Notes under the pieces: model-generated | The model's database searches: none | What the model was told of the DNA's origin: nothing | The model's input: the letters and a program-made list of their open reading frames with translations, nothing else | Translations under genes and position numbers: made by a program | Shown: piece by piece, positions 17,054 through 24,888 of the stretch | Position numbering within the stretch: position 1 is the first letter of the stretch | Layout: the number at the start of each line of letters is the position of its first letter | IMG/VR virus record: IMGVR_UViG_2880406838_000008 | Reading direction: 5' to 3' (one strand) | Length of the DNA stretch: 41,210 nt | DNA from: a virus | Lineage: Duplodnaviria; Heunggongvirae; Uroviricota; Caudoviricetes

Positions 17054-17380
17054 TCATAACACCGTCGGACAACGCAAATCGTAAATCAGCACGGACACAG
17101 AAAACGGCAGTTCCCCCTGCACGAGGTCTTCCCGCTCAGCAAGATCCGGATTCCGGTACAGCATCCCGGTCAGTCGCATGGCAGCCCCCTTCATCCGGGT
17201 TAATGCCTCGCCCGGGATCAGCTCACCGTCCTCACGAATCACCTTATCCCGGCTGCCCTGAATGTAGGCCAGCAGCACGGCGGTAGCCTGACGAACCTTG
17301 TCCATCAGCATGTCATCATCCGCGTCATGGTCGACACGCAGATGTGCCTTGATCTCTTCCAGTGTCAGTAATGCCGTCAT
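17054..17380 (-). CDS. head-tail connector protein (gp6-like)
   Basis: 108 aa; N-terminal LTLEEIKAHLRVDHDADDDML is typical of gp6-like connector proteins. Confidence 0.6.
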   Translation of the reverse strand: MTALLTLEEIKAHLRVDHDADDDMLMDKVRQATAVLLAYIQGSRDKVIREDGELIPGEALTRMKGAAMRLTGMLYRNPDLAEREDLVQGELPFSVSVLIYDLRCPTVL

Positions 17381-18438
17381 TTTCCGCCTCCTGCATCCCG
17401 TCCACGTTTGGCAGCCAGGGTCCAGCCTGATGAATGAGCTTCTCCGGGTTTATCACCGGTCATACTGTTGCAGTGCCACAGCGAGCCCCCCCACGTCACC
17501 GTATCACCGGGGTGGTAGGTTTCACCGGCTCTGAACACACCGCGGTAGAGCATCACCGGCAGGGAAAATGTTTTTTCCGTACGCTGGCCACTGCTCTGCC
17601 GGACCACCACAGTGAACGACCGTTCGCCGGTCATGCTGACGTCAATATCGGCCACCCCGTCAACCAGGCATTCCCATCCCCGCATCCCGTGCGTTTTTTC
17701 ATACGCCCGCCAGAGTCCGCCCTGGTGTGTGGCATACGTGCCCCGGGGAAAGGATTTTTGATCGTCAATGGCGGGGATTATTTCCAGTGCCGTGGCATCA
17801 CGCCCGTCCTGCGGAGCCGGCAGGGCTCTCACCGCATCCAGAACAGCCTTCTGCAGAACATCGGGATCATAGTCACGACCATCACGCGGAACAGGAATAT
17901 GGCTTACCGCCTCTTTCACCATCTGTTCAAGCATCGGACGCACATCATCGGGGGTAATACTTTTGCCGTCCGCCGGTACCGGAATATTCGCAACCGCATC
18001 ATTCACCGCCTGCTTCAGTACTTCCGGATCATAATCACGACCGTCACGCGGAGCAGGGATATGGCTTACAGCCTCTTTCACCATCTGCTCAAGCATCGGA
18101 CGCACATCATCGGGGGTGATACTTTTGCCGTCCGCCGGTACCGGAATATTCGCAACCGCATCATTCACCGCCTGCTGCAGTACATCCGGATCATAATCAC
18201 GACCATCACGCGGTACCGGAATGGTCCCCACAGCGTCATCCACCATCGCCTGCAGAACCGGATGTACCTCATCCACCGTCACATGCTTCTGTAATACCGC
18301 CGACAGGGAAGCCAGTTTCTCTTCAAACGCTTGTGCCTGCGCGGCCATCTTCCCCTCAAATGTGCGCTGTAAATCCGCCAGCACCGTGGAGAATTCTTCG
18401 CCCAGTGCACGAATAATGGACAGTTCCCGTTCCGTCAT
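17377..18438 (-). CDS. structural protein of unknown function with tandem 54-aa repeats (possible head decoration protein)
   Basis: 353 aa; N-terminal coiled coil, about three near-identical 54-aa repeats (IPVPADGKSITPDDVRPMLEQMVKEAVSHIPAPRDGRDYDPEVLKQAVNDAVAN), beta-rich C-terminal domain; overlaps the portal stop. Confidence 0.5.
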   Translation of the reverse strand: MTERELSIIRALGEEFSTVLADLQRTFEGKMAAQAQAFEEKLASLSAVLQKHVTVDEVHPVLQAMVDDAVGTIPVPRDGRDYDPDVLQQAVNDAVANIPVPADGKSITPDDVRPMLEQMVKEAVSHIPAPRDGRDYDPEVLKQAVNDAVANIPVPADGKSITPDDVRPMLEQMVKEAVSHIPVPRDGRDYDPDVLQKAVLDAVRALPAPQDGRDATALEIIPAIDDQKSFPRGTYATHQGGLWRAYEKTHGMRGWECLVDGVADIDVSMTGERSFTVVVRQSSGQRTEKTFSLPVMLYRGVFRAGETYHPGDTVTWGGSLWHCNSMTGDKPGEAHSSGWTLAAKRGRDAGGGK

Positions 18439-19799
18439 TTTCTCAGTATCCCCCTGAACATCGCTTTCACTGCATCATGCTCTGTTTCACTGATTGCCTT
18501 ATTACCGTCAGATGCGCCGTCAGGCAGTTGTGCTGAAACTGTTTTCCCGGCCGACGCGAACGGGTCCTCACGGGCATCACGACGGGACAGCGCCTCCAGA
18601 CTGTAGTTCTGCTGCTGAAGATACAGTGCATCACCGCCGGCAAGGGGCGGCAGGTTCTCACGTTTACGGGCCTCATTGGGCGTGAGAAGCGTATTTTTCA
18701 CCGATTCACCCAGTGTTTTCATGCGCCGTTCGCTGTCCATTCTCAGCAGCGTGGTGACGTCAAACTCCGTGCTCTCGTTTTCCCCCGTTTCCAGCGCCTC
18801 ATCCAGTAACAGCTCAATGGACTCAATCAGCGTCTGCAGACACTGGGAATAATACTGCTGCTCCAGCGCCTCCACGTTGTCACTGGAAGGCGGGTGGCCA
18901 ACGCCAATCTTGTAGGCCAGGACACGGAACACCGAACAGACAATTTCAGCGGTCATCTTCAGTTGTTCCACCGTCTGCGCATCCACCGGTGAAAACGTCG
19001 TGGGGTTGTATTTTGCCCCGTTGCTCAGAATGGCCGTTTTCCCCGCATTTTCGCCGGTATACCCGCTGTCCCAGTTGCTCTTCAGTTTTTTCGCATTTTC
19101 TTCCGTAATACTGCCGGGGATCTCAATCACCCCGGACGGCCTGCCGCCATTTCTGAAAAAAGACGTCGAATTTTCCTGAATATGATGCCCCTGCGTGGCC
19201 GCCAGCCCGGCAGCATACACCGGCGGCAGCCCCACAAGCGGATGAAAAAAACAGTTAAACCGGTCGTGGATCACTTCCCTGGCAGGCACCGTCACCGCCT
19301 CCGTGATCCCGCAGTTCCGGTCCGGTGTAATGCGATAGAACACCTCGCCGTCATCCGCCACCAGAGGTTCAACCCGGCTCCAGTCCAGAATACGCAGTTC
19401 TTTGATCTGCCCCCGGGCATTACGGATTTTCAGCACCACCGTATTGCCATGACGCAGTTTGGCGTTCAGCCACAGTTCAAAAAACTGGATGCGGTTCTGC
19501 TGGGCGTTGGGACGACGACAGAGGCGGGCAATATCCCCCCGGCGCGTTTCCCTGCGTATCCCATGCGCATCCGTCTGCATAAGACGCAGCCGCATTTTGG
19601 CGATATCCTGGGATATCAGCGAAATACATGCAAACACCGCATGAAAGGAGAGGACGGCTTCAGGATCGGCTTTCACGCCCTGCTGCCAGGCGCCGGAAAA
19701 GGGCTCAGCCACCGCCTGAAACAGGCTGGTCCAGCCCGCCTCTCTTACGTCACGTCCTGATTTCTGGTTTTTTCGGGTTCGCCGTAAAAGGTTCCACAT
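18435..19799 (-). CDS. portal protein (HK97-family)
   Basis: 454 aa; motif blocks FFRNGGRPSGVIEIPGSITEENAKKLKSNWDSGYTGENAGKTAILSNGAKY and TPNEARKRENLPPLAGGDALYLQQQNY recalled as portal-family signatures. Confidence 0.8.
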   Translation of the reverse strand: MWNLLRRTRKNQKSGRDVREAGWTSLFQAVAEPFSGAWQQGVKADPEAVLSFHAVFACISLISQDIAKMRLRLMQTDAHGIRRETRRGDIARLCRRPNAQQNRIQFFELWLNAKLRHGNTVVLKIRNARGQIKELRILDWSRVEPLVADDGEVFYRITPDRNCGITEAVTVPAREVIHDRFNCFFHPLVGLPPVYAAGLAATQGHHIQENSTSFFRNGGRPSGVIEIPGSITEENAKKLKSNWDSGYTGENAGKTAILSNGAKYNPTTFSPVDAQTVEQLKMTAEIVCSVFRVLAYKIGVGHPPSSDNVEALEQQYYSQCLQTLIESIELLLDEALETGENESTEFDVTTLLRMDSERRMKTLGESVKNTLLTPNEARKRENLPPLAGGDALYLQQQNYSLEALSRRDAREDPFASAGKTVSAQLPDGASDGNKAISETEHDAVKAMFRGILRK

Positions 19800-19966
19800 T
19801 CGCCATGCTCCGCATCACGTTTCTTTTTCTGACCTGCCGGACGTCGCACCGTGATGTACTCCGCCTTCCCCAGGCGAACCAGCACCTCCGCACACGGCTG
19901 TGCCACATCACGGATATCCCCGGCCCGGGCATCATGCGTGCCCTGCAGATATCGGATCTTTGCCAT
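19745..19966 (-). CDS. small hypothetical protein between capsid and portal genes
   Basis: 73-aa ORF with ATG at 19966; its 3' end overlaps the annotated portal start, so the true extent is uncertain. Confidence 0.3.
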   Translation of the reverse strand: MAKIRYLQGTHDARAGDIRDVAQPCAEVLVRLGKAEYITVRRPAGQKKKRDAEHGECGTFYGEPEKTRNQDVT

Positions 19967-20010
19967 AACCTGTTACGGGAGGCGCACGCCTCCCGTCCTC
20001 CTTATCAGAC

Positions 20011-21948
20011 TCAGCCGCCGGACGCACTGCCGTAGTTCACTCCGGTGATCACCGCCACCGCCGCGGTACGGCGACGACGCCAGTTGATCCAGCGCTCCGC
20101 ACGGATGGCCACGCTGCCTGTCTGGAACATGGAAACCAGCTCCACCGGGGACGGCGTGGTACTGTCGCCGGTCGGCTCAGACTGCATTTCCAGTGATGCT
20201 TCACGGGACATATCCACTGCCACGCCGCCGTCATCCGCCAGATAAATATCCGGGGCATTCACCAGCACCAGCTGGTCACCCACGTACTGGGAGACAATCA
20301 CCGGCAGCCCCTGGAAGGAGCCACCCAGCAGGGTCATGTCCGGGTATTCCTTCTGACCCAGCGCATTTTTACGCATGGACAGTGCCAGGGCATTGGTGCT
20401 GGACATCAGCCAGACCGCACCGGTGGGCTGCAGGTTTGCTGCCACAAACTGTCCAAACGCAGCCTCTGCATCCGCATCCGGGTTACCGGTTGATGCCGTG
20501 CCCTTCACATCATGGGTGATGGACGCCGGGGAGACATCTGCCACTGCGGCTTTTTTCGGGTCCACAAAGTCTGTATCCAGACGCGCCACCACCGCTTCCG
20601 CCAGCGCATTACGGACCAGTGCATCAGCAGCCGGACTGGAAAAACGGATCAATTCTTCCGTCAGTACCGCAATGGCCGACACTTTCGCATGACTGAAGGT
20701 GATGGATTCAAAATCAAACTTCGTCAGGGGTCTGGCCTTACCCTCACCCACCCAGCCGGCAGCACCGCCGGACACCTGGGCGTGCACACGGATATTGAAC
20801 GGCACCTGACGAAGTGCAGGGATCCCGCCCTGACCAAATCGCCCGATAATGGTCTGCGGACGCAGGTAATCAATAAAGTCCTGTGCGTATTCCTGATATT
20901 CAGACAGGCTGCCTGCCCACTGCGGATCCGTGGTGGTCCCCGCGCCCACTGCCGATTTCAGGACATGATGCAGACAACTGTCATCCGGATACTGACGACG
21001 GGCCACTTCCAGGGCTTCAGATCGGACGCCTTTAGCCGCAGCCAGCGATTTGGCAAAGCGGGCGAAGCCAATCCCCTTATCCAGTTTCTGCTCCACACGG
21101 ATCACCGGCGCAGAAGCCACCGCGGCCACATTCCCGTTACCGGCCTGTTTCACCGGCTGCGCCGTGGCGGCCTTACCGGCTTCCAGTTCACGCAGGCGCT
21201 TCAGGTGCGCATCCACCTGACGGATTTCCGCTGCGGTGTTGTCGTAGTGCTCTTCCTCCTCCACATCCAGCGTGCGCCCTTCCTCTGCGGCTTTGGTCAT
21301 GACCTCCTCAAGGGAGGCTGCCAGCGCTGCACGCTTGTTTTCAAAACTTTTAATCTGTTCGCCAATATTCATTATGGTCTTTTCCTTATGAAAAACGGTT
21401 GTTGACTGTGCCGCAGCGCCGGCAGAAGATGCGATTTTCACCACCGGTTTCCGGTTGCCGGACGCGGCAGAAAACGGGCGGTCGTAAGATTTAATGGTCC
21501 GGATGGTGCATTCCGCATTCGCGGGCACGGTGACGGCAGACACCTCCATCAGTTCCCAGCGCAGAAAATGCAGTCCGCCTCCGTCCAGAAAGGTGTATTC
21601 ATGGGGACGGAAGCCCACGGACAGCCCCCTGACCAGCCCGGTCTTAATGGCCGCCCAGACCTCATCCAGCCGGGCAGCCAGTTGCGACGGCATATCCGGT
21701 ACGGGCTTCACCAGTGTTGCCGTGATTTCCAGCCCTTCGCTGACCCGGCGTACCGTACACTGCCCCACCGGGCGGGAATGGTCATGCTGCCAGAGAAACG
21801 GGATCGCACTGCCAAACTCCGCGCCCTCCGGCTCCAGGATGTCACCATCCCGATCCGGAGAAGGCGTTGACGCAATCCCGGTGATCACCCGTTCATCCTC
21901 ACTGAAGGATTTCACCGTCAGCAGGGAACAGGCCCGTTTAAGAGTCAC
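20011..21948 (-). CDS. prohead protease - scaffold (delta) - major capsid protein fusion ORF, HK97-like
   Basis: 645 aa in one frame. N-terminus has protease motifs (ITGIASTPSPDRDGDILEPEGAEF, WQHDHSRPVGQ, GLSVGF); the middle is a charged coiled-coil segment; the C-terminal about 300 aa look like an HK97-fold capsid. Internal ATG at 21372 is preceded by an AAGGAAAAG RBS; AGGAGG RBS before the ATG at 21948. Confidence 0.75.
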   Translation of the reverse strand: MTLKRACSLLTVKSFSEDERVITGIASTPSPDRDGDILEPEGAEFGSAIPFLWQHDHSRPVGQCTVRRVSEGLEITATLVKPVPDMPSQLAARLDEVWAAIKTGLVRGLSVGFRPHEYTFLDGGGLHFLRWELMEVSAVTVPANAECTIRTIKSYDRPFSAASGNRKPVVKIASSAGAAAQSTTVFHKEKTIMNIGEQIKSFENKRAALAASLEEVMTKAAEEGRTLDVEEEEHYDNTAAEIRQVDAHLKRLRELEAGKAATAQPVKQAGNGNVAAVASAPVIRVEQKLDKGIGFARFAKSLAAAKGVRSEALEVARRQYPDDSCLHHVLKSAVGAGTTTDPQWAGSLSEYQEYAQDFIDYLRPQTIIGRFGQGGIPALRQVPFNIRVHAQVSGGAAGWVGEGKARPLTKFDFESITFSHAKVSAIAVLTEELIRFSSPAADALVRNALAEAVVARLDTDFVDPKKAAVADVSPASITHDVKGTASTGNPDADAEAAFGQFVAANLQPTGAVWLMSSTNALALSMRKNALGQKEYPDMTLLGGSFQGLPVIVSQYVGDQLVLVNAPDIYLADDGGVAVDMSREASLEMQSEPTGDSTTPSPVELVSMFQTGSVAIRAERWINWRRRRTAAVAVITGVNYGSASGG

Positions 21949-21960
21949 ATCAGCCTCCTG

Positions 21961-21986
21961 AAAATAAAAAAACCGCCGGAGCGGTT
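21961..21986 (-). terminator. putative intrinsic terminator between terL and the capsid gene
   Basis: Minus-strand hairpin AACCGC-tccg-GCGGTT followed by TTTTTTATTTT, directly upstream of the capsid gene RBS. Confidence 0.4.
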
Positions 21987-22011
21987 CGTGATGGTTACAG
22001 TGTGAACAGGG

Positions 22012-23673
22012 TTATATGAAAAAAACCGCATATTCTTTCTTTTTCGGTTCCGGGTTAAGGGACATCAGGGAGACCGCATTGAACAGCGCCATCAGCGGGT
22101 CAATTTTTCCCCGTCCGCTGGCCTGTTTGGTGATAAGAATGGCGTTACCTTTAGGCTCCACCCGGGCATTACCGACACACCAGGCCATCAGGGGCTGATC
22201 ACCGTGAATCAGCACCCCTTCAGCCAGTTTGCGCTCGGTGGTTTTGATGGCCCCGCCCAGCTTCCAGCCCTGGCTTATCCCCACCACACTCTCATCGGGG
22301 ATCCCGGCTTCCGCCAGTGAATCCAGAATCTGCCCCACACCTGACGGGTCAATACCGATATGATCCAGTAACTCAGCCTCATGAATACGACGCACATACT
22401 CCGCCACTTCCGCCGTGTCATCCCCGACCCGACGGACAATCGTCATGTCTCCACAGGCCACAAAATCCTGAAACCGGGATGCCTCACTCTTCCGTCTGAC
22501 CACCGCGGTTTCATGCACCCAGGCATGGCCCCAGCCCAGCCATTCGCGGGTTTCCCTGTCACGGCCAGTCACGTACATTCCCAGCAGATCATCCAGGCCC
22601 CCGCCGTCAATCCCCACCGTCACCACATCAGCGCGCTGCAGGATATCGTCCAGGCTGACGCGCCTGCCCTGCTGCTCCCAGAAATCCGCCCCTGCCCAGC
22701 GGTCAGAACGCAGGGCAAGACCGATTTCCACATTGGCGTGTTTTGACATGAAACCGCGGAAAGTCTCTTCCCCGGCTTCCCGGGCTTTACGATACTCCCG
22801 GTACAGAAAGGCCTCATCCACCGAATAACCGAGATTCGGGTTAACCATGGCGAGGTTTTCCATCAGCAGGTGCTCACCGCTCTCCACCATTTCAGGAGGA
22901 TGCTCAAAAATCACCGGCAGAAAGTGCGGATCATGAATTTTGCCGTCACGGACATCCCGGGCGTACTGCAGTTTCTGCCTGAACACCCCGGCAGGCGGTT
23001 CATTCGACTGGGTGGTTGTGTACACCACAAACCCTTCCGGACGTGAAGCCAGCCCGCCGATGGCTTCACGTAACATGTCCTCCGCTTTGTACTGCTTGCC
23101 AAACAGCCACAGTTCATCAATCAGTGTCCCCACGGACTTGATACCGGACACCGTATTCGGATCGGCTGCCACCACCTTCAGGGTGGTGTCCGTCACCCGA
23201 TGGGTGATGGTCCGGATATGTGTCTGCACCTGACAGAGGTCATCCAGATCATCGTCCCGTCGTACCATATCCCTGGCAGGGTTGAAGGCGTTAGCCGCCA
23301 CCTCCACGGTCGGGGCCAGAATGGTGTAGCCCGCCGCCTGCCGCCAGTTCAGTAACAGCGCCGTCATCATGATCCCCGCGGCCAGCGTGGACTTCGAGTT
23401 TTTCTTGGGGATAAGGATAAAAACTTCCTTGATATGGCGTACACCGGTCTGCGCATCGTAGGAGCCAAACAGGGCCGCCACCAGGTCAAACACCCACGCT
23501 GCACAGGACTCCCCGAATGTCGGGCTACCCGGTGCATCCACAATCCGCAGTTGTTTAAAAATCGCCAGTGCATGTGCAGCCTGGTCCGGATAAATCGGAG
23601 CCGGAATAATCGACAGCCCCTTTTTCAGGCGCTCTGCCCAGTCCGGACATGCCGTGCTCCACACAGGTATCAT
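22012..23673 (-). CDS. terminase large subunit (Terminase_1 / HK97-type)
   Basis: 553 aa; Walker-A-like PKKNSKST near the N-terminus; nuclease-domain blocks VTVGIDGGGLDD... and C-terminal ...ILITKQASGRGKIDPLMALFNAV. Confidence 0.9.
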   Translation of the reverse strand: MIPVWSTACPDWAERLKKGLSIIPAPIYPDQAAHALAIFKQLRIVDAPGSPTFGESCAAWVFDLVAALFGSYDAQTGVRHIKEVFILIPKKNSKSTLAAGIMMTALLLNWRQAAGYTILAPTVEVAANAFNPARDMVRRDDDLDDLCQVQTHIRTITHRVTDTTLKVVAADPNTVSGIKSVGTLIDELWLFGKQYKAEDMLREAIGGLASRPEGFVVYTTTQSNEPPAGVFRQKLQYARDVRDGKIHDPHFLPVIFEHPPEMVESGEHLLMENLAMVNPNLGYSVDEAFLYREYRKAREAGEETFRGFMSKHANVEIGLALRSDRWAGADFWEQQGRRVSLDDILQRADVVTVGIDGGGLDDLLGMYVTGRDRETREWLGWGHAWVHETAVVRRKSEASRFQDFVACGDMTIVRRVGDDTAEVAEYVRRIHEAELLDHIGIDPSGVGQILDSLAEAGIPDESVVGISQGWKLGGAIKTTERKLAEGVLIHGDQPLMAWCVGNARVEPKGNAILITKQASGRGKIDPLMALFNAVSLMSLNPEPKKKEYAVFFI

Positions 23674-24233
23674 CCGCTTTCCTCATTATCATTATTCACC
23701 ACCAGGCGGGGTGGTGGTGGCACCGCAAAACGGTTAGCCGCTTTTTTCGCCGCGTCACCTTTTGCCGATTTTTTACCGGCATCCCCTTTTTTGTGGTGCG
23801 TGAATTGCGCCAGCTTATAAGCCGCATCCAGCGCCAGCCTGGGGTCGGTATTAATGTTCTCCACCAGAAGACGCCCCATCGCTTTCACCGGATCGGGAAG
23901 ACCGTCCTCCATATACTCAATACCAGGAGATATCACCACGGGCGGTGGCATCTCCGGATTTGTTTCGTCCGGCTGTGGTATTGCAGCCGCCTCACGGCGA
24001 CGGGGTTTATCCTCCGGCTCTGATTTTTTCTGCCGGTAAACAGGAACCTCATCCACCTCCACCGTCTCGCACTGTTTACGGGCTATAAACGCAAGCACCT
24101 CCGGATCTTTTGCCAGCTGCGAGCCTTTAACCCTGGCTGTCTTCGCCGAATAACCGGCGGCAAGGGCTGACGCTGTTTTGTTTTTCCCGGACATGAGCGC
24201 CAGCGCAAATTTTCGTTTTTGCGTTGTCAGCAC
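23670..24233 (-). CDS. terminase small subunit
   Basis: 187 aa; basic N-terminal region with HTH-like segment, Pro-rich acidic linker, overlaps the terL start; directly downstream of the putative cos region. Confidence 0.7.
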   Translation of the reverse strand: MLTTQKRKFALALMSGKNKTASALAAGYSAKTARVKGSQLAKDPEVLAFIARKQCETVEVDEVPVYRQKKSEPEDKPRRREAAAIPQPDETNPEMPPPVVISPGIEYMEDGLPDPVKAMGRLLVENINTDPRLALDAAYKLAQFTHHKKGDAGKKSAKGDAAKKAANRFAVPPPPRLVVNNDNEESG

Positions 24234-24522: not shown

Positions 24523-24888
24523 TCACAGGCCAGTGATTCCGTCGGCCCTGAGCGTGCCATCAGGAAGCTCAGGCAACGTCGGATCAGGCATACCACTCGC
24601 CGCTTCACTCGCTGACTTCTGGCGATGGCATTCAGTACAGAGGGTCCAGAGGTTCGTCTCCTCATTACCACCACCGAACTGAAGTGCAATGCGGTGATCG
24701 AGTTCACTGTCACAGAGGTCAACCACGCGTCTACAGAGACAACAGTGTCCGGCATCCCTCCGCCAGATACGACGTTTGAGGGAAACCCGGGCACTGCCAC
24801 TGACACGACGCTGTTCACCCTTCAGAATATTCACCCGCCGGGTGTTCAGAGTTTTGATTCTGCCCGGTAACGTACGAAGCACAGCCAT
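24523..24888 (-). CDS. HNH endonuclease (terminase-associated)
   Basis: 121 aa with HNH/zinc motifs (HCCLCRR...DHRIALQFGG...NLWTLCTECH); adjacent to the terminase genes as in HK97-like cos phages. Confidence 0.8.
   Translation of the reverse strand: MAVLRTLPGRIKTLNTRRVNILKGEQRRVSGSARVSLKRRIWRRDAGHCCLCRRVVDLCDSELDHRIALQFGGGNEETNLWTLCTECHRQKSASEAASGMPDPTLPELPDGTLRADGITGL

Follow-up and report, generated by a model that had tools for sequence, protein, structure and literature searches.

Comparative evidence for a putative capsid start site kept inside a fused prohead protease-capsid gene

How many proteins does a phage make from a single gene that encodes both its prohead protease and its major capsid protein? 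The question is raised by a tailed-phage sequence of 41,210 nucleotides (IMG/VR record IMGVR_UViG_2880406838_000008; the whole of this analyzed stretch is called the window here). In it, one open reading frame (ORF) of 645 codons on the minus strand (20011..21948, GTG start, stop codon 20013-20011; PHROG 617, E 1e-261) runs from an S78-type protease through a scaffold-like segment into an HK97-fold capsid region, with no stop codon between the protease and capsid domains. An earlier reading of this DNA, made from the letters alone (the sequence-only reading), had placed this uninterrupted frame correctly and had proposed that a strong ribosome-binding site (RBS) and an ATG inside it, at 21372, could give a separate scaffold-capsid product. 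Comparison with relatives strongly backs such a product at the level of sequence. We put the probability that the ORF yields two products, a fusion initiated at GTG 21948 and the capsid protein alone initiated at ATG 21372, at roughly two in three; that the two co-assemble and that the protease removes itself is what we infer from this arrangement.

The putative internal start is the ATG codon of Met193 (21370..21372, minus strand), which is conserved at the junction and would open a capsid-only product of 453 amino acids. Ten nucleotides 5' of it lies an in-frame Shine-Dalgarno (SD)-like AAGGA (21383..21387, minus strand), set within a TAAGGA whose TAA is out of frame. The duplex of this AAGGA with the anti-SD sequence is worth -6.2 kcal/mol, within the top 13% of in-frame positions in its own ORF. 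The site and the ATG are therefore as the sequence-only reading had described them, but its word "strong" has to give way to "moderate".

The comparison covers 80 loci of different species and Burkholderia phage vB_FUB47a, which makes 81 loci, or 82 with the window; the hosts include Alpha-, Beta- and Gammaproteobacteria, Actinomycetes, Clostridia, Flavobacteriaceae, Planctomycetes and others. Protease and capsid form one uninterrupted frame in 60 of the 82 loci, the window included, and are separate genes in the other 22. At the junction of the 60 fused loci stands ATG in 56, GTG in two and TTG in two, which is a start codon in every case. Among the 150 best representatives of the protein family (clusters at 50% identity), 123 are 600-700 amino acids long and match both domains, down to 38% identity. 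The junction Met is present in 111 of these 123 fused representatives, within an otherwise variable linker, and the exceptions are mostly Val or Leu. Where a representative is an unfused capsid protein, its first residue falls exactly on the position aligned with 192 or 193.

In many loci the Lys/Glu-Glu-Gly codons 5' of the junction spell GGAGG (for example, ccgaaGGAGGgcacgggaATG). Anti-SD duplex energies average -7.4 kcal/mol at fused junctions and -5.9 kcal/mol at the capsid starts of the 22 split relatives, compared with -2.8 kcal/mol at 859 other in-frame ATGs. The difference between the fused junctions and these 859 ATGs of the same ORFs has a Mann-Whitney p of 3e-24, and -5 kcal/mol is reached by 85% of fused junctions as opposed to 18% of the control ATGs. 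The SD at the fused junctions also exceeds what resampling of synonymous codons gives (observed -7.39 vs -5.65, Wilcoxon p = 1e-9). Furthermore, in 98% of loci the messenger RNA is less strongly folded over a 60-nt stretch at the junction than elsewhere in the ORF (mean z +1.95; +2.67 in the window).

In the split relatives, the protease stop codon lies just 5' of the capsid start and, in some, inside the SD of the capsid gene: two split loci (L147 and L001) read caaTAAGGAttcc...ATG, so that TAAGGA itself supplies the protease stop codon. The window carries the same TAAGGA, but with the TAA out of frame. A rough neighbor-joining tree of the capsid part, analyzed by parsimony, gives about 12 changes between the fused and split states, with the fused state at the root. 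Such repeated switching would be expected of a fused gene in which the capsid start is already functional.

The domain assignments on which this argument depends come from profile searches and from an AlphaFold2 model of the 645-residue protein, built on 70 diverse homologues (mean predicted local distance difference test score, pLDDT, 85). Residues 18-153 (21490..21897, minus strand) form the S78 prohead serine protease domain, modeled at pLDDT >90. Pfam Peptidase_S78 (PF04586) matches residues 48-152 with 34.7 bits (cut-off 21), and hhalign against HK97 gp4 gives a probability of 97% (E 6.7e-11), with H55 aligned to catalytic H65 and S110 to S114. H55 and S110 are invariant in the 70 homologues, which are 36-53% identical to the window protein. 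By these sequence matches, the N-terminal part is an S78 protease of the HK97 gp4 type with its catalytic His and Ser intact.

A linker that is predicted to be disordered follows (residues 154-192, 21373..21489, minus strand; pLDDT <50 over residues 155-190), and alignment column statistics show that both its length and its sequence vary among relatives. Two short motifs in it are nevertheless conserved family-wide, A-A-S/T-G (residues 161-164) and P-G-A/V-S/T-G (residues 176-180), at about 21409-21468 in the window, where the second is degenerate and reads AGAAA. They are candidates for protease cleavage sites or capsid-targeting sites.

From residue 193 to about 265 (21154..21372, minus strand), the model has a delta- or scaffold-like segment with two long helices, at residues 195-222 and 229-262. 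In the family profile, residues 198-262 match residues 4-68, the N-terminus, of the major head protein 9gyi_B, which fits a delta/scaffold domain here. The capsid region proper spans residues ~290-645 (20014..21081, minus strand). Pfam Phage_capsid (PF05065) matches residues 386-635 with 53.8 bits (cut-off 24.2). The best Foldseek matches in the PDB are the Bxb1, D3 and HK97 capsids (E 2e-15 to 1e-10, target-normalised TM-score 0.5-0.75), and the family profile matches major capsid proteins in the PDB by sequence as well (E 1e-17). Direct hhalign alignment of the capsid part with HK97 gp5 was not significant (probability 0.13%), and the correspondence with gp5 is at the level of motifs only. 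Judged from the predicted structure and the profiles together, the C-terminal part is an HK97-fold capsid. The protease, the scaffold-like segment and the capsid domain named by the sequence-only reading are all borne out by these searches, with the protease found in the N-terminal part and the capsid in the C-terminal part.

How the two products might work together can be outlined from this layout. Initiation at GTG 21948 would give a protease-linker-delta-capsid protein of 645 amino acids and ~70 kDa, while initiation at ATG 21372 would give a delta-capsid protein of 453 amino acids and ~49 kDa, of the same kind as HK97 gp5. The delta and capsid parts, identical in the two, would let them co-assemble, with the protease carried into the procapsid by its covalent tether, and the ratio of the two initiation rates would set the protease copy number. 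Inside the shell, the protease would then remove itself, the linker and the delta domain to leave the mature capsid protein; the disordered segments at residues 268-279 and 336-340 of the AlphaFold2 model are candidates for the maturation cleavage site.

Nested protease and scaffold genes are known from lambda C/Nu3, herpes simplex UL26/UL26.5 and Mu I/Z. In these pairs the long product has the protease, the shorter product of an internal start is the bulk assembly protein, and the two co-assemble through their shared C-terminal part. The window gene has the in-frame internal start with an RBS that marks a pair of the lambda C/Nu3 type (ATG 21372 with AAGGA), and it would match the logic of that pair if the internal start is used. 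It differs in that the shared part of C/Nu3 is a separate scaffolding protein, whereas in the window it is the capsid itself with its delta domain, and in that the second product is putative. In its wider form, the proposal is a conserved nested pair in which the nested product is the capsid, a weakly started (GTG) fusion co-assembles with it, a covalent tether replaces the non-covalent protease targeting of HK97, and the ratio of initiation sets the protease dose. Under this nested-pair reading, the dozen or so switches between fused and split forms across bacterial phyla follow from the capsid start site being kept in both. We consider this wider form somewhat better than an even bet.

Several points weigh against the use of a second start. 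The internal SD of the window is only moderate and is no stronger than its amino acid sequence predicts (synonymous resampling p = 0.36). The linker is rich in Lys, Thr and Asn, and this composition may account, at least partly, for the weak messenger RNA structure at the junction. Because the 60 fused loci are mutually related, their p-values overstate independence. The features of the internal start are conserved across the fused family, but this evidence is comparative and bears on sequence, not on measured translation. Our search of the full-text literature, whose coverage is incomplete, found no experimental study of the products of the fused gene, and these products may already have been determined.

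The most serious competitor to two products is that only the full-length protein of 645 amino acids is made, with one protease per capsid subunit that cuts itself out after assembly. The junction ATG and SD would then be leftovers of an ancestral split pair or would have no role in initiation. An uninterrupted frame behind a strong AGGAGG (21954..21959, minus strand; 5 nt 5' of the GTG, anti-SD duplex -10.3 kcal/mol) is what such a gene would look like, and the moderate internal SD of the window, with its unremarkable codon choice, agrees with it. By a rough estimate, moreover, the interior of a T=7 procapsid could fit 415 copies of a protease, linker and delta part of ~32 kDa. Leftovers, however, would not be expected to retain unstructured messenger RNA around a start codon whose SD is as good as those of real capsid starts. 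These features are kept in 60 fused loci, which come from different species and whose proteins share 35-58% best-segment identity with that of the window, and the fused state at the root of the rough tree implies that they have long persisted in the fused form. We therefore regard a single product as unlikely, though it is a possibility to be taken seriously.

The in-frame SD-like sequence might also act as a translational pause that lets the protease fold before the delta domain emerges, and not as an RBS. That internal SD-like motifs slow elongating ribosomes is a published but disputed idea, and the enrichment of such sequences just past the protease domain would suit it. A pause would leave unexplained both the start codon (ATG, GTG or TTG) at a fixed distance downstream and the unfused capsid proteins that begin exactly at the junction, and we think this explanation improbable. 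Least credible of all is that the fusion arose by a sequencing error or by a frameshift in a defective prophage. The early region of the prophage does look degraded, with two IS3-family transposase ORFs, but the identical frame occurs in 1254 complete Escherichia coli genomes and in phages BP-4795 and 2851, and fused homologues extend across Enterobacterales (73-77% identity) and many other phyla. A sequencing error, which the sequence-only reading had named as a possible source of the fusion, or a pseudogene is excluded by the intact frame at 2975 places in those genomes together with fused homologues of ~645 residues down to 38% identity.

If the internal start is used, the two-product gene would be a natural case of enzyme delivery into a protein shell by a covalent tether, with the dose set by translation, and would be relevant to the engineering of capsids and encapsulins. 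Roughly one complete E. coli genome in four has the head module, frequently in multiple copies, and many Shiga-toxin-converting phages have it too. With so wide a distribution, the way in which it builds capsids bears on the spread of toxin genes.

The fused gene itself is ordinary, very common and already annotated; what is added here is the comparative evidence, drawn from sequence, for a capsid start kept inside it. A 5.8-kb head module 90-99% identical to that of the window occurs in 94 phage records, and in 92 of these its coverage is 80% or more. JLK-2012, phage 2851, Stx2a_WGPS6 and many Shiga toxin (Stx) 1a- and Stx2-converting phages come closest, and the phage records annotate the fused gene as 'putative major head protein/prohead protease'. 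For the fused gene, identity is 96-100% in 92 phage records, with BP-4795, phage 2851 and JLK-2012 among them. Of 5426 complete E. coli genomes, 1254 carry the gene, with no more than 7 copies in any one, and these account for the 2975 places at which the intact frame is found. Fused homologues of 644-648 amino acids and 73-77% identity are present in Salmonella, Enterobacter, Klebsiella, Serratia, Pantoea and Kosakonia. Among protein family models, PHROG 617 is a full-length model of the fusion that matches residues 1-639, and PHROG 4523 is named 'major head and protease protein'. An initial scan of viral contigs was set aside as evidence of conservation because it returned near-identical E. 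coli copies only.

BP-4795 ORF56 (98.6% protein identity to the window ORF), phage 2851 gp17 and the corresponding gene of JLK-2012 (Marienburgvirus and related Stx-converting phages) are the same gene as that of the window. The 5.8-kb head modules of these phages are 96-98% identical to the window in nucleotide sequence and have the same order of small terminase gene (terS), large terminase gene (terL), fused gene, small ORF and portal gene. Comparison of head modules with related phages, as the sequence-only reading had suggested, thus returns the same fused gene and order in BP-4795 and phage 2851. Nothing substantive distinguishes these genes from that of the window; BP-4795 has a K at the position of R406. 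The window ORF is the head-assembly gene of a lambdoid prophage of the BP-4795/phage 2851 type, resembling the Shiga toxin phages.

More distant phages share the fusion. Gene product gp03 of Pseudomonas phage PAJU2 is annotated as 'prohead protease fused capsid protein' and lies in the order terS, terL, fused gene, small ORFs, portal, an ORF of ~330 residues, adaptor and head closure. PAJU2 differs from the window in its Pseudomonas host and in having two small ORFs, not one, between capsid and portal. Between its protein and the fused homologue of Pseudomonas donghuensis (locus L086) identity is 55%, and L086 is in turn ~50% identical to the window protein. A single gene for capsid and maturation protease has been called an unusual feature of Arthrobacter phages (PMC5513430). 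These phages of clusters AM and AU (for example, Circum gene 12), which we compared by that published description only, resemble the window in this gene and differ in their actinobacterial hosts. The protease fusion of a CBASS preprint was rejected as a precedent since it joins protease to scaffold and not to capsid.

The sequence-only reading had also called the gene order unusual. The order does differ from that of HK97, in which terS, terL, portal, protease and capsid follow each other and the portal precedes the protease. It is not peculiar to the window: in 76 of the 81 distant loci the portal gene follows the capsid gene in the same orientation, with a median gap of 343 nt. Of the five loci that lack a portal match, three run out <400 nt past the capsid stop codon. 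A terL match lies directly 5' in 53 of the 81 loci, and the annotations of PAJU2 and vB_FUB47a give the same order as the window. The order terL, protease-capsid, small gap, portal is a stable trait of a large family and is unusual only by the HK97 standard. A local rearrangement as its source was rejected, given the downstream portal in 76 of 81 distant loci. Burkholderia phage vB_FUB47a belongs to the same family (39% identity) and has terS, terL, protease, capsid, small ORF and portal. Unlike in the window, two genes in different frames encode its protease and capsid, and the protease stop lies in a TAAGGA that is also the capsid SD.

In its local protease-capsid layout, HK97 resembles the window. 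HK97 gp4 is an S78 protease with the matching His and Ser, and gp5 has the same capsid fold with a helical delta domain at its N-terminus. Upstream of gp4 is a hairpin with a T-run; the protease gene starts with GTG, and the capsid gene, which starts with ATG, begins 2 nt past the protease stop. The window has the matching layout minus the stop codon between the genes. In HK97, the hairpin and T-run before gp4 are annotated as a 'putative terminator', and another 'putative terminator' follows gp5.

The terminator-like hairpin and T-run of the window (21961..21987, minus strand), detected by terminator scan and RNA folding, lie directly before the RBS of the fused gene, as the sequence-only reading had noted. 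The hairpin (21987-21970) has a 7-bp stem and a 4-nt loop (GAACCGC-TCCG-GCGGTTT) and is followed by TTTTATTTT. A hairpin and T-run within 90 nt 5' of the protease start occur in 15 of 79 loci, the window among them, compared with 15 of 820 control windows. Most of the 15 loci belong to hosts among the Gamma- and Betaproteobacteria, and the sequence of the stem differs between them. The hairpin could stop transcription that has not been antiterminated, or could stabilise the messenger RNA. A second, GC-rich hairpin (GGGAGGC-GTGC-GCCTCCC, 19977..19994, minus strand), read directly from the sequence, stands just past the capsid stop codon without a T-run, at the place that matches the post-gp5 'putative terminator' of HK97.

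The capsid region can also be compared with HK97 at the chainmail cross-link positions. By shared motifs only, HK97 K169, N356 and the catalytic E363 align with R406, G611 and E618 of the window protein; the codons of R406 (20731-20733, minus strand) and G611 (20116-20118, minus strand) lie inside the capsid domain. Of 131 family sequences, 111 have K/N/E at the three aligned positions; most of the others deviate from the triad at two or more of them. In this motif-based alignment the window protein does not have the K/N/E triad but R/G/E. Its closest E. coli copies, including BP-4795, have K/G/E in 62 cases and R/G/E in 10. Judging by these residues, the Stx-phage lineage of the window probably cannot form the HK97 isopeptide cross-link.

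The genes around the fusion form a head module on the minus strand in the order HNH endonuclease, terS, terL, hairpin and T-run, 645-codon ORF, a 73-codon ORF and portal. After the portal, the same strand carries a repeat-containing ORF of 353 codons, a gp6-like connector gene and a head-completion gene. The HNH gene (24523..24888, minus strand; Pfam HNH PF01844, E 5e-6) lies 5' of terS, and HNH genes adjoining terminase genes are known from HK97-like cos phages. The small terminase subunit is encoded at 23670..24233 (minus strand; Pfam Terminase_2, E 4.5e-8; annotated terS in BP-4795 and phage 2851) and the large subunit at 22012..23673 (minus strand; Pfam TerL_ATPase and TerL_nuclease), with a 63-nt spacer between terL and the 645-codon ORF. 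The portal gene occupies 18435..19799 (minus strand; Pfam Phage_portal PF04860, E 3.5e-79).

The 73-codon ORF in the interval between capsid and portal (19745..19966, minus strand) matches PHROG 829, a family of unknown function (E 4e-39), corresponds to ORF57 of BP-4795 and overlaps the portal start by 55 nt. No homologues were found by tblastn in the 81 distant loci or in Pfam, PHROG 829 being the only match. Its ATG (19966) has no good SD adjacent to it; an AAGGAGG lies at 20003-19997, with the 18-nt GC-rich hairpin in between, and this hairpin, if folded, could bring the AAGGAGG near the ATG.

Directly 3' of the portal gene, with an ATGA overlap, lies the ORF of 353 amino acids (17377-18438, minus strand). 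It contains a 162-nt tandem repeat in 2.3 copies (17846-18222), and its C-terminus is weakly CBM_5_12-like. The counterpart in BP-4795 has 461 amino acids, so the repeat number varies, and PAJU2 has an ORF of ~334 residues at the matching place. One PHROG 'portal' profile of 859 positions covers both the portal and this ORF, whose product might be a decoration or head-fiber protein. At the far end of the window, the two IS3-family transposase ORFs (34702-35592, plus strand, and 38106-38996, minus strand) have equal scores and opposite orientation. An exodeoxyribonuclease VIII-like gene (35632-37911) sits between them, and the window also encodes a tyrosine integrase (39915-41210). While its early region looks disrupted, the prophage has an intact head module.

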